The translations under genes were made by a program, and so were the position numbers. A stretch of 34,265 nt of DNA from a virus (taxonomy: Duplodnaviria > Caudoviricetes), in IMG/VR virus record IMGVR_UViG_3300042997_001168, positions 1 to 34,265 of that record. One strand, given 5' to 3'. Positions 7,764-10,099 of this stretch are shown in pieces; the first letter of the stretch is position 1, and each line of letters begins with the position of its first letter. The notes beneath the pieces were generated by a model. The model was not told the origin of the DNA. It made no database searches and was given only the letters and a program-made list of their open reading frames with translations.

Positions 7764-8507
7764 TCAGAGTTGTCCGTAATCAGCCGGGCGGGCGGGTATT
7801 TCGTCAGGACTTGCGAACCCGAACAGCGGCAGGAAGAAGAAGGCCTGCCCACGCTCGCGCATAAGGCTGGCGCCCTGAATTTCGCTTGATGCCCCTGCGG
7901 CGTCCCGTGCGGCGTCCCCTGCGGCGTCCCATGCGGCGTCCCCTGCGGCGTCCCATGCGGCGTCCCCTGCGGCGTCCCGTGCGGCGTCCCCTGCGGCGTC
8001 CCATGCGGCGGCCCGTGCGGCGTCCCCTGCGGCGTCCCCTGCGGCGTCCCGTGCGGCGTCCCCTGCGGCGTCCCCTGCGGCGTCCCATGCGGCGTCCCAT
8101 GCGGCGGCCCGTGCGGCGTCCCATGCCTTCCAATCCTCCGGCGTCATCTGGTCCAGATGCCACCAGAAATCGAGCAGCTTGCTCCACTGGTCGCCAAGCA
8201 CCTTGCCGGGATCGGTCAGGACGATGGAGGGAGCGCCGTCCACACTGTCATTGATATTCCGAAGCAGGACCGCGTGAGCGCGGCTGATCTTGAGAAGGTC
8301 GGCAGTCAGCTTGTCGGCGTTCGCCTGTTCGGTGCGGTTGAGATCGTCATGCGACAGGCCGCCGATCAGATGAAGCACCTGACCCTGTGCGCACATGCAG
8401 CCGAGATTTTCCGGGTCCGCTTCGTAAGCGCGCCAGTCGATCAGCGATCCCTTGTAAGGACGGCCATCGCCGCTATCCCAACGCTCAATGATTTCCGCAA
8501 GCTGCAC
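7764..8507 (-). CDS. Phage protein with an AA[W/G/R][D/A] tetrapeptide repeat tract
   Basis: Probable GTG start at 8507 after GAAGGAGGAAG; repeat tract in the C-terminal half. Confidence 0.75.
   Translation of the reverse strand: MQLAEIIERWDSGDGRPYKGSLIDWRAYEADPENLGCMCAQGQVLHLIGGLSHDDLNRTEQANADKLTADLLKISRAHAVLLRNINDSVDGAPSIVLTDPGKVLGDQWSKLLDFWWHLDQMTPEDWKAWDAARAAAWDAAWDAAGDAAGDAARDAAGDAAGDAARAAAWDAAGDAARDAAGDAAWDAAGDAAWDAAGDAARDAAGASSEIQGASLMRERGQAFFFLPLFGFASPDEIPARPADYGQL
7891..8126. repeat. 12-bp coding tandem repeat, 19 full units plus a partial unit
   Basis: Plus-strand unit [t/g]ccc[c/g/a]tgcggcg, contiguous with no spacers. Confidence 0.95.
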
Positions 8508-8530
8508 TTCTCTTCCTCCTTCGGCGTTCG

Positions 8531-8773
8531 TTAGGCGGCCATGACCAGCGTGGCGGACGAAAGGCAGCGGGCGACAATCACCGCAGCGCACTCTTCGGCG
8601 CTGGGGAACTCGCAGGCAGCGTCATACCCGACCGCATCAATGCAGGCGTCGAGCAGGCGATTGCTGGTCTGGATGTAGCCGCGCGGATCAGCGCAGGTTT
8701 CGAAGTCACCCATGCGATGCAGGCTGCTCAACAGCCCGTCGATGGTTTCGAATTGCGCCAGAGTGATCTGCAT
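8531..8773 (-). CDS. Hypothetical protein, first gene of the PL operon
   Basis: 80 aa, strong AAGGAGG RBS, immediately downstream of PL. Confidence 0.75.
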   Translation of the reverse strand: MQITLAQFETIDGLLSSLHRMGDFETCADPRGYIQTSNRLLDACIDAVGYDAACEFPSAEECAAVIVARCLSSATLVMAA

Positions 8774-8805
8774 CTCTTCCTCCTTCGGCTTGGCCGGTAG
8801 GAGGG

Positions 8806-8859
8806 GTTATGTACCCTGATTAGGTACGTGTCAATATAATTGTACCCTATTTAGGGACA
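8806..8859 (-). promoter_or_regulatory. PL promoter with two 19-bp operators (TGTACC-N7-GGTACA type)
   Basis: Minus strand TTGACA(8834-8829)-17-CATAAC(8811-8806). Operators tgtaccctgattaggtacg (8810-8828) and tgtaccctatttagggaca (8841-8859). Confidence 0.8.
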
Positions 8860-8890
8860 TTTTTTTTCGTAGCCCGCGAATCACGCCCAC

Positions 8891-8925
8891 AAAAAAGCCC
8901 CGCCCCTCAGGCGAGAGGCGGGGGC
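8891..8925 (-). terminator. Intrinsic terminator insulating PL
   Basis: GC-rich stem followed by T6 on the minus strand. Confidence 0.8.
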
Positions 8926-9008
8926 AGTAGGGTCGCACACGGGCAAAGCCCGCAGCGCAGTAGATCACGAAGGTGGGTTGATTCACATACCGAGAATGGG
9001 GGATGGCG

Positions 9009-9037
9009 AAAGAAAACCCCGGCGGATTAGGCCGGGG
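9009..9037 (-). terminator. Intrinsic terminator closing the putative ncRNA
   Basis: CCCCGGC/GCCGGGG stem followed by TTTTCTTT on the minus strand. Confidence 0.75.
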
Positions 9038-9148
9038 GCTGCTGGCGGTATCTACATCGGACAAAGGCTTGTTATCACCCGGTTGTCCGATGGCCTTCCC
9101 CTAAAAGGGAGAGGTCTTAGACGCGGATCGCGATGGAGAGCCGCTAGC
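9009..9148 (-). ncRNA. Putative structured ~140-nt ncRNA downstream of the PemK-like remnant
   Basis: Own promoter TTGACG(9183-9178)-17-TATATG(9160-9155). Closing stem 9141-9148/9041-9048, perfect 10-bp stem 9055-9064/9083-9092, terminator. Confidence 0.55.
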
Positions 9149-9165
9149 CATCCTCATATAGGTTT

Positions 9166-9387
9166 TCAGAGGTGCTTCGTCAATGTCGATAGCCCCAGCG
9201 CCCGCAACACACATTGGCGGACGATCTTGAAGTTATCTGCATCCAGCGGATCGTAATGATAGCGCCTGGTGCCGTCCGGATTTTTGCCAGTTCGGATAAA
9301 ATCCAGCCTGTGAAAGCCAACAGCATTCACCATGTCACCCTTTACCCATACCCCCGTACTAGACCAGGGATGCGGAAGCGCCCAACG
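9166..9387 (-). pseudogene. C-terminal half of a PemK/MazF-superfamily toxin
   Basis: Hand translation: LPHPWSSTGVWVKGDMVNAVGFHRLDFIRTGKNPDGTRRYHYDPLDADNFKIVRQCVLRALGLSTLTKHL*. In-frame TGA at 9388-9390 and no N-terminal K.RPVVV..CTVV half. Confidence 0.65.
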
Positions 9388-9495
9388 TCAAGCCCAACAA
9401 AATACAACCTAAATACAGCAACTTACTCCCCCTATCGCAAGTTACTCACAGTTCATCGCGTTCCAGTCATTTCCTATTTACCTCGACTCGCGTAA

Positions 9496-9510
9496 GAACG
9501 AATCAGGAAC
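9496..9510. promoter_or_regulatory. Alphaproteobacterial LexA (SOS) box
   Basis: GAAC-gaatcag-GAAC equals GTTC-N7-GTTC on the other strand; intergenic, 16 bp before an ATG, with -35-like TCGACT at 9483-9488. Confidence 0.75.
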
Positions 9511-9526
9511 ATAGGTGAGGATGGCG

Positions 9527-9814
9527 ATGGCAGTCACACTACATGAGCCGGCCTGTGAAGTTGGGTGCAGGACATGCCTGCTATCCTGCGCCGTCATGCC
9601 TGAGCGCTTGGCTTGGTGGGATCGAGAGATTGAGCGGCTCTTGCGGGAGCGTTCAATGGCTCCTGTGCAGCACGAATTAGCCGATCAACTTGGTAGCGCG
9701 CTAACTGCCCGCGAAGACCTTCTGCGACGGTTCGAATCCACACCGAGGTCGAAGAACCTGGAGGAACTTCTTGGGCCAAGTCGGAAACGATATCGCGCAT
9801 CTCGTCTTCATTAG
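9527..9814 (+). CDS. Putative SOS-inducible Cys-motif protein (candidate antirepressor), antisense to the repressor 3' half
   Basis: GAGG RBS, LexA box upstream, C-x3-C-x2-C-x3-C followed by a helical region. Confidence 0.5.
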   Translation: MAVTLHEPACEVGCRTCLLSCAVMPERLAWWDREIERLLRERSMAPVQHELADQLGSALTAREDLLRRFESTPRSKNLEELLGPSRKRYRASRLH

Positions 9815-10010
9815 GGATTGGAGCTGCTTCGAAAATCTCGTGAGGCTGACATTTTAGATGCGGCGCTAACCTGCGCGCCCAATCGAGCGTCATGGGCAGA
9901 ATTCCCTGCTCCAGCTTCACGATCGTTGAGCGTCCCGACCCTGCCAGTTCCCCCAGCTTGGCTTGAGAAAGGTCCGCCTTTTCGCGTGCTTCTTTGATGC
10001 TCATGACCAT
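9594..10010 (-). CDS. cI: XRE-family phage repressor (CI-like) with no S24 peptidase domain
   Basis: IKEAREKADLSQAKLGELAGSGRSTIVKLEQG HTH; divergent from cro across the operators; 138 aa from ATG 10010. Confidence 0.85.
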   Translation of the reverse strand: MVMSIKEAREKADLSQAKLGELAGSGRSTIVKLEQGILPMTLDWARRLAPHLKCQPHEIFEAAPIPNEDEMRDIVSDLAQEVPPGSSTSVWIRTVAEGLRGQLARYQVDRLIRAAQEPLNAPARAAQSLDPTKPSAQA

Positions 10011-10099
10011 GCGCCGAGCATCGGTACATAGACCCATAAGCTCAAGAACCGGCGCAGGGTACATTTGCGCTTGAATGTCGTACCTAAGTTGGGTACAAC
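10010..10099. promoter_or_regulatory. OR region: three operators with PRM and PR
   Basis: Operators at 10010-10028, 10045-10063 and 10079-10097 (cgtacctaagttgggtaca). PR is TTGAAT(10071)-17-TACAAC(10094). PRM on the minus strand is TTGAGC(10045)-17-GATGCT(10022). Confidence 0.75.

Follow-up and report, generated by a model that had tools for sequence, protein, structure and literature searches.

In the type III toxin-antitoxin systems ToxIN, CptIN and TenpIN, as outlined in PMC5086642 and PMC12283969, an antitoxin RNA of tandem repeats lies upstream of the toxin gene, with a terminator between the two and a single promoter. Phage phiTE is a known case of escape from such a system, which according to the summary in PMC3475682 arose by laboratory repeat expansion. 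Neutralisation by RNA is also described for AbiF, a prophage-borne toxin that is neutralised by a directly binding structured RNA, RCd22 (the abiF motif; abstract-level account in PMC12373285). In addition, RNA motifs are listed as associated with the DUF3800 family (PMC5737381), and a table of candidate structured RNAs places DNAVirus_248 at most 25 bp from YifN/PemK genes in phages (Fremin et al. 2023, PMC10690425). Here we describe a phage locus in which half of a PemK/MazF-fold toxin gene is followed by a structured RNA, and compare it with these systems.

The locus lies in a window of 34,265 nt, which is the entire IMG/VR record IMGVR_UViG_3300042997_001168 and is estimated to be 81% complete. 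The portal and capsid of this phage match SU10-type profiles, the closest cultured match to its capsid is that of the Sinorhizobium phage phiM5 (43%), and the closest toxin homologues having DNA include Sphingomonadales; we infer that the host belongs to the Alphaproteobacteria. An HTH repressor, a small HTH gene divergent from it and operator-like palindromes (Table 1) together indicate a lambda-like immunity region. The operator pattern has five matches in the window, four of them as pairs, against a chance mean of 0.45. An earlier, sequence-only reading had placed the locus between cI and PL, and this is borne out, as the remnant and RNA lie between the repressor and the left operators of the leftward promoter region. 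No relatives of the window cI were found in viral contigs. Farther left, a 12-nt tandem repeat (7892-8126; 19.6 copies, 91% matches) encoding Asp-Ala-Ala-(Trp/Gly/Arg) repeats lies inside the early-left ORF 8498-7764, which has two weak matches to PHROGs of unknown function.

Table 1. Features of the locus and of the surrounding immunity region, in window coordinates.
Feature	Position	Strand	Basis
Two operator-like palindromes over predicted leftward promoter PL	8810-8859		pattern scan; context
Intrinsic terminator, common to a related phage with other cargo	9009-9037	-	terminator scan, X17 contig
Whole 356-bp cassette (toxin remnant + promoter + RNA) in variable slot	9038-9393	-	X17 contig
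RNA arm: 10-bp helix, inner stem, GA-NNN-CAA loop (GAUAACAA, 9076-9069)	9050-9092	-	fold, covariation
RNA core: leader, P1, CUC/U internal loop, P2 hairpin, linker GUCUAAGA, P3	9093-9148	-	covariation, alignment
Predicted -10 box (CTATAT/TATATG), 17 nt from -35	9155-9161	-	sequence; spacing conserved
3' half of PemK/MazF-fold toxin gene (residues 71-141 + stop)	9166-9381	-	homology, PF02452
Predicted -35 box TTGACG, within toxin Leu-Thr codons	9178-9183	-	codon conservation
Non-homologous junction, TGA in frame at 9390-9388, forming left edge of swappable cassette	9382-9393	-	contig bridging
cI-like HTH repressor	9594-10010	-	profile match; context
Further two operator-like palindromes	10045-10097		pattern scan; context

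The frame at 9387-9166 runs from stop to stop over 73 codons behind the in-frame TGA, which confirms the C-terminal fragment initially read from the minus strand. The window peptide alone has no Pfam match, while a search with it returned 119 longer proteins among 169 candidates, 118 of which carry PF02452; the name used in source records is 'YifN (PemK superfamily)'. The best relative, P0001 (141 aa), is identical to the peptide at 61 of 71 residues and scores 40.2 bits against PF02452 (cut-off 23.1); its AlphaFold model (pLDDT 85.8) has only members of the MazF family among the listed Foldseek matches, the best being S. aureus MazF (E about 2e-6, TM about 0.6). The assignment to the PemK superfamily thus holds, whereas the resemblance to ToxN suggested with it does not, the best structural matches being type II MazF. 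The profile reaches 601 clusters at E<=1e-10, and the net charge of the homologous proteins ranges from +3 to +13. Two residues of the intact homologues that align with MazF catalytic positions, R30 (119/119) and S52 (118/119), are those we take to be the MazF-type catalytic Arg and Ser/Thr, and the intact protein is predicted to be an endoribonuclease toxin. The start codon and both predicted catalytic residues belong to the half that is missing from the window copy, so the remnant cannot be an active nuclease. This 5' half was not found anywhere in the 34-kb record, and no frameshifted or decayed version of it was found, with no trace upstream of 9381. The remnant itself, free of stops and decay, keeps 25 of 25 family-conserved residues, which suggests that the truncation may be recent; the window copy may accordingly be a recent relic, and a recent neutral loss is possible.

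Misassembly was rejected as the cause of the truncation, since contigs from runs X4 (9260-9511) and X5 (9338-9659) bridge the junction with zero differences; run X1, possibly the source itself, was left out of this count. The break in the toxin gene coincides with the boundary of a slot. In one contig of soil run X17, with 30 letters on its short side, the same flanks (up to 9037 and from 9394) enclose 1045 other bases, which makes the intervening stretch an exchangeable cassette behind cI; another X17 contig shows a loose end at 9389. The alternative cargo apparently opens with an ATG about 10 nt inside the junction. Slots of the same type behind a repressor hold intact modules at four loci (L004, L066, L256, L258) and a lone RNA at a fifth (L102). 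All 11 of 11 cultured-phage matches of the intact protein are small Vibrio phages (Vinavirales), and in Vibrio phage 10N.237.312.C11_PE001 (L256:1320-1450) the gene sits at the genome end behind a LexA-like repressor, and the RNA is found some 130 nt downstream of the gene.

The sequence-only reading had pointed to TTGACG in the last codons of the remnant and TATATG 17 nt farther on (9160-9155), and both are present; a sigma-70 scan of the window with a generic consensus called no site at either, and support for a promoter comes from conservation. At the Leu-Thr site, 72 of 74 homologues use TTG and 64 of 74 use ACA, compared with 23% and 19% elsewhere in the same genes. TTGAC precedes the RNA core at 80 of 84 loci, an AT-rich hexamer follows at the same spacing in homologues, and in shorter genes (L031, L081) the -35 box keeps its distance to the RNA, across or behind the stop codon. 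The -10 box was read with the alphaproteobacterial -10 consensus in mind. The predicted -35 box is selected at the DNA level within the toxin codons, and the RNA would be transcribed from its own predicted promoter. The proposed intrinsic terminator is likewise present, as a hairpin (9037-9017) followed by a U-tract, though it lies within the flank shared with the phage carrying other cargo and may therefore belong to the slot.

Downstream of the remnant lies a structured RNA of ~140 nt, with a fold of marked stability (z = -3.6; 0 of 200 shuffles as stable). Throughout the family its order is P1, the CUC/U loop, a variable P2, single-stranded (GUC or AU)UAAGA, P3, the arm and the terminator. 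In the window copy, P1 comprises 9144-9141 with 9126-9123, the linker GUCUAAGA between P2 and P3 is single-stranded, and the P3 hairpin (9114-9094) is longer than usual. A covariation check downstream of homologues, as proposed with the original reading, found a conserved RNA: among 80 aligned copies and 21 pairs in five helices, 95.7% of cells are paired compared with 75.4% when shuffled, a control that is inflated by related sequences, and two-sided changes occur in 16 of the 21 pairs; slid controls, which preserve relatedness, all reach at most 46%. The perfect 10-bp helix described earlier is confirmed (9092-9083 with 9064-9055). Conversely, the enclosing stem drawn at the time, GCUAGCGG/CCGCCAGC, is rejected as the family fold, because GCGG at 9144-9141 covaries with CCGC at 9126-9123; it is the minimum-energy fold of the window copy, 5.6 kcal/mol below the family fold.

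Family P1 is disfavoured in the single-sequence fold of the window RNA (probability 0.0003), which we count against our preferred reading; the median in 79 homologues is 0.85, with 12 of them also below 0.1. Prefixes of the window RNA of 60-100 nt fold into P1 with a probability of 0.91-0.98, so co-transcriptional folding or protein binding could restore the family fold, and all invariant RNA positions are intact in this copy. The strongest covariation falls on pairs that are nested or adjacent. Pairing of the invariant loop C with the linker AG is conceivable, though these positions do not vary. The comparison with Rfam 15 proposed earlier gave no gathering-score match over the RNA in the window, at 10 linked loci or at 8 lone loci. 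No tandem repeats occur in 8127-9700, each of the 5 genomes searched holds a single RNA copy, and no variable guide segment is seen in the alignment.

Among homologous loci, 6 viral ones and the best 80 of 112 genomic ones were compared; the RNA stands directly behind the stop codon in 84 of the 86, 79 of these being in alignment A2, one (L011) identical to L010 and four recognised by model. In the two exceptions, the gene is cut off by a contig end (L046) or interrupted at residue 119 (L080), and the close genes found without an RNA are broken (L080, L391, L392). Behind distant homologues (~30-47% identity), from plasmids and a Vibrio phage, the RNA model matches in 8 of 15 cases at E<0.01 and in 12 of 15 at E<0.1, with the arm better conserved than the core, which also counts against our preferred reading. 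By a loose pattern, the arm is retained in 114 of the 126 unique RNAs linked to a toxin, but in only 18 of the 50 without one. The module is patchily distributed: of 151 genomes sampled from the family of Sphingobium algorifonticola, 6 have the protein and 5 the RNA, and of 151 from that of Roseovarius nubinhibens, 9 and 6, with the two adjacent in 7 genomes overall. These genome-wide RNA searches scored 27 candidates per genome and missed divergent copies, which direct scans later found behind four more genes (E 1e-4 to 0.4); the remaining genes comprise one that ends at a contig edge, two broken ones lacking the RNA and a distant one whose downstream stretch differs. Four RNAs stand alone in bacterial genomes of these samples (L246, L247, L382, L384).

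The lack of an adjacent protein antitoxin that had been remarked on in the window extends to intact homologues, where none of 97 small flanking ORFs is of MazE/PemI type; other matches among them are one Arc/RHH and three HTH, mutually unrelated. The 186 upstream ORFs form small clusters only, the largest having six members, and look transposase-like by eye; no shared element was seen by eye in the upstream 75-nt stretches of homologues. In its intact form, the family comprises a single gene for a MazF-fold protein of ~141 aa, one covarying RNA behind it and no conserved partner gene. Two further results count against our preferred reading: the neighbours show no defence enrichment, 6 of 112 having PADLOC matches, several of them incidental; and for the homologue on E. 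coli p5217 (33% identity) the RNA model finds no match, and an 86-aa ORF lies just upstream of it. PADLOC gave no match for the PemK/MazF-fold protein itself.

Several loci show variations on this arrangement. Tightly coupled upstream ORFs of 86 and 126 aa are found at L255:90-875 (E. coli p5217) and L261:518-1317 (a Fluviibacter plasmid), together with no RNA match or an arm match only, and these lineages possibly use a protein partner. On the Citrobacter plasmid pLHC5-1-6.9k (L260:1272-1384), a DUF3800 gene converges on the PemK gene, with the RNA located between the two. At L393:1700-2050, a much more remote PemK-like gene (E 1e-4) has behind it a stretch resembling a promoter, then a GC-paired segment and a terminator, these differing in sequence, which hints at further RNA-linked subfamilies. 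Behind the RNA arm at L017:5540-5640, L031:5540-5640, L021:5535-5620 and L140 there is, by eye, a stretch like the 3' half of a tRNA, followed at L017 and L031 by one like the 5' half; ARAGORN found no whole tRNA. A test for cleavage-motif avoidance within the toxin genes was uninformative, with TAAG at rank 91 of 256 and a depletion general for TA-containing words. Pairwise protein and RNA identities correlate (rho 0.43, 76 loci), as kinship alone would also produce.

The RNA also occurs without the toxin, at 57 loci in 33 upstream contexts, 14 of which have a viral member; toxin-less here means that no toxin gene lies within the available upstream DNA of at least 250 nt. Searches with two core patterns returned 31 viral loci, and a search with one of them returned 118 in metagenomes, of which 19 that failed the helix parse were dropped as chance matches; L148, which failed too, was retained for its intact P1 and its position between two tRNAs. 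Seven loci with less than 250 nt of upstream DNA were set aside, as was L161, an internal deletion. As the patterns fixed much of the core sequence, core invariance in lone copies is partly circular; P2 pairing and P3 closure, neither of which the patterns required, are kept. An arm-only pattern gave 114 matches in viral contigs, of which none of the first 80 passed the RNA model, and the gene is present at only two of the arm-only loci, both already known. A blastn search of the window RNA against cultured phages returned four chance matches, and a second query with the core returned none.

Lone copies are often trimmed to a core of ~45 nt. Within a marine phage group of 13 members, what remains upstream is about 13 codons, the -35 box alone or nothing but the -10 box, with the core kept throughout and the arm replaced in some members. 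Core-only copies lie 3-10 nt behind the stop codons of unrelated genes in compact phages; the cultured Celeribacter phage P12053L carries the core behind the stop codon of its ribonucleotide reductase gene, and other cores adjoin tRNA genes, at L148 between tRNA-Met and tRNA-Thr and at L172 after tRNA-Lys. The arm is absent from 12 of the 14 viral toxin-less contexts, another point against our preferred reading. At L100 (= L118; 1400-2550, minus strand), a lone RNA, a tRNA-like attachment-site fragment (by eye) and a distant PemK gene with its own divergent RNA occur together, giving two RNA variants within 1.1 kb. The suggestion that the window phage kept only the RNA and its promoter gains from the recurrence of toxin-less copies in unrelated phages and is weakened by the undecayed remnant (25/25), whose truncation may be recent. 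Repeated capture and minimisation by phages suggests counter-defence, comparable to the phiTE pseudo-ToxI as summarised in PMC3475682, and we tentatively regard the lone phage copies as possible anti-defence elements.

We hypothesize, with a probability of about 0.58, that the cassette combines the 3' half of a toxin gene with an RNA that is likely a direct-binding antitoxin, such that the phage would make the antidote without the toxin. For the family as a whole, a toxin with an RNA antitoxin is the probable arrangement: it is the simplest reading of a predicted RNase that has its catalytic residues intact, no protein partner and an obligate structured RNA with its own predicted promoter, and lone RNAs are common while RNA-less close genes are broken, an asymmetry typical of addiction modules. 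The parent system envisaged at the outset, a toxin with a downstream RNA, is upheld in its MazF-fold gene, its covarying downstream RNA and its lack of a protein antitoxin, and revised in its fold, the one drawn not being the conserved one. Transcribed from a promoter of its own, the RNA would outnumber the toxin mRNA and block the enzyme; the single-stranded Y-U-A-A-G-A linker, exposed between two helices, would probably mimic the substrate. The UAAGA linker is the likely contact with the protein, a proposal based on the substrate preferences of MazF. Host shut-off during infection could deplete the RNA and free the toxin, leading to abortive infection or addiction. The remnant may survive in the window phage because it holds the promoter, and making the RNA would shield a phage against related toxins in its host. 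It is conceivable, if less than even odds, that MazF with a downstream RNA represents a fourth architecture of RNA-neutralised nucleases, whose ~45-nt core has been captured by temperate and lytic alphaproteobacterial phages as anti-defence. The sites of capture may, on an equally tentative footing, be behind stop codons, among tRNAs or, in the window, behind cI with the donor promoter.

The same observations can be arranged differently. If the family is a toxin-RNA antitoxin pair and the window copy a neutral relic whose toxin was recently lost through a deletion or recombination at the slot edge, with the harmless RNA hitchhiking, then a remnant without stops and with 25 of 25 conserved residues, a break that coincides with the slot boundary, lone RNAs in bacterial genomes too (four, listed above) and a predicted equilibrium fold that departs from the family fold would all be expected. 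Such a relic is nevertheless rather unlikely, given that the truncated form is bridged in two other studies (X4, X5), though perhaps of one campaign, that the promoter and every invariant RNA position are intact, and that core-only copies 3-10 nt behind unrelated genes of compact phages would go unexplained. It is improbable that the RNA is instead a partner other than an inhibitor (the scaffold, sensor, guide or processed substrate of an RNP), which lone phage copies would titrate or hijack: no variable guide segment is seen, and no close gene was found to be intact yet lacking the RNA, as would suit a protective role. In favour of such a partner, the linkage is strict, two RNA domains are separately conserved, the layout is unlike every type III system described in the accounts of PMC5086642 and PMC12283969, and the Weinberg 2017 lists (PMC5737381) include terminator-ended protein-linked motifs of unknown function (DUF3800-I and others).

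Invariant unpaired bases, together with core-only copies directly behind stop codons or adjoining tRNA genes (L148, L172), might also mean that the ~45-nt core works independently of the protein where phage genes and tRNAs have their 3' ends, for instance as a self-cleaving ribozyme or as a signal for processing or stability. We consider this quite improbable, as tight linkage to one protein family would be unusual for ribozymes as characterised in PMC5737381, no Rfam ribozyme matches the window (E<=5) or eight lone loci (E<=3), and the predicted start lies only ~4 nt before P1, with a terminator following. There is very little to be expected of a selected 55-aa peptide, started at an internal ATG (9333-9166), that would poison toxin dimers, or of the RNA as a cis-acting 3'-UTR or antisense regulator: an ATG-started frame of that length exists and the remnant is undecayed, but other toxin-less phages keep 13 codons or none, and the RNA lies on the same strand with its own predicted promoter.

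The antitoxin reading places the family among known systems as follows. With the type III systems, as PMC5086642 and PMC12283969 outline them, it shares a fold related to MazF/Kid, a non-coding RNA that is its sole conserved partner and ends in a terminator, and an occurrence in phages and plasmids. It differs in that the RNA is downstream, a single unrepeated unit, with a predicted promoter inside the toxin gene; moreover, the protein is structurally closest to type II MazF. The helices seen in the RNA are nested, though pairing of loop C with the linker might yet give a fold like the H-type pseudoknot of type III RNAs. With the type II systems MazEF and PemIK it shares that fold (TM about 0.6) and the aligned catalytic Arg and Ser/Thr, yet it has no MazE/PemI gene, and its protein is ~30 residues longer and below the NCBIfam MazF cut-offs. 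The protein of AbiF, according to PMC12373285, belongs to the unrelated Abi_2 family, and the RNA here has no Rfam match to the abiF motif. The Rfam pemK motif (RF02913) and the DUF3800-linked motifs, as listed in PMC5737381, are likewise protein-linked structured RNAs, and no Rfam match to them occurs here. DNAVirus_248 is unlikely to be the same RNA, as its table description (PMC10690425) gives a palindromic element of 57 nt from Neisseria phages, with the gene downstream and no terminator. Titles and abstracts of the papers listed by literature searches gave no description of the RNA-linked family, although the motif may sit unnamed in the Weinberg 2017 or Fremin 2023 lists, and the accessible text of bioRxiv 10.64898/2026.09.22.753630 mentions neither PemK nor MazF.

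On our best reading, the family would be a type III-like toxin-RNA antitoxin with a new architecture: unrepeated, downstream and with its own promoter. Databases name these PemK/MazF-fold proteins type II toxins, and because searches for type III systems look for repeats and a terminator upstream of the gene, a MazF-fold protein with a single downstream RNA would be missed. The phiTE pseudo-ToxI, as summarised in PMC3475682, shares the phage-borne antitoxin-like RNA without a toxin and its capture by recombination, whereas the putative antitoxin copies here are natural and single and occur in 14 viral contexts, some with a promoter of their own and others lacking one. If the reading is true, the family links type II and type III toxin-antitoxin systems, and its lone RNAs would constitute a naturally widespread RNA counter-defence whose carriers include the cultured phage P12053L.
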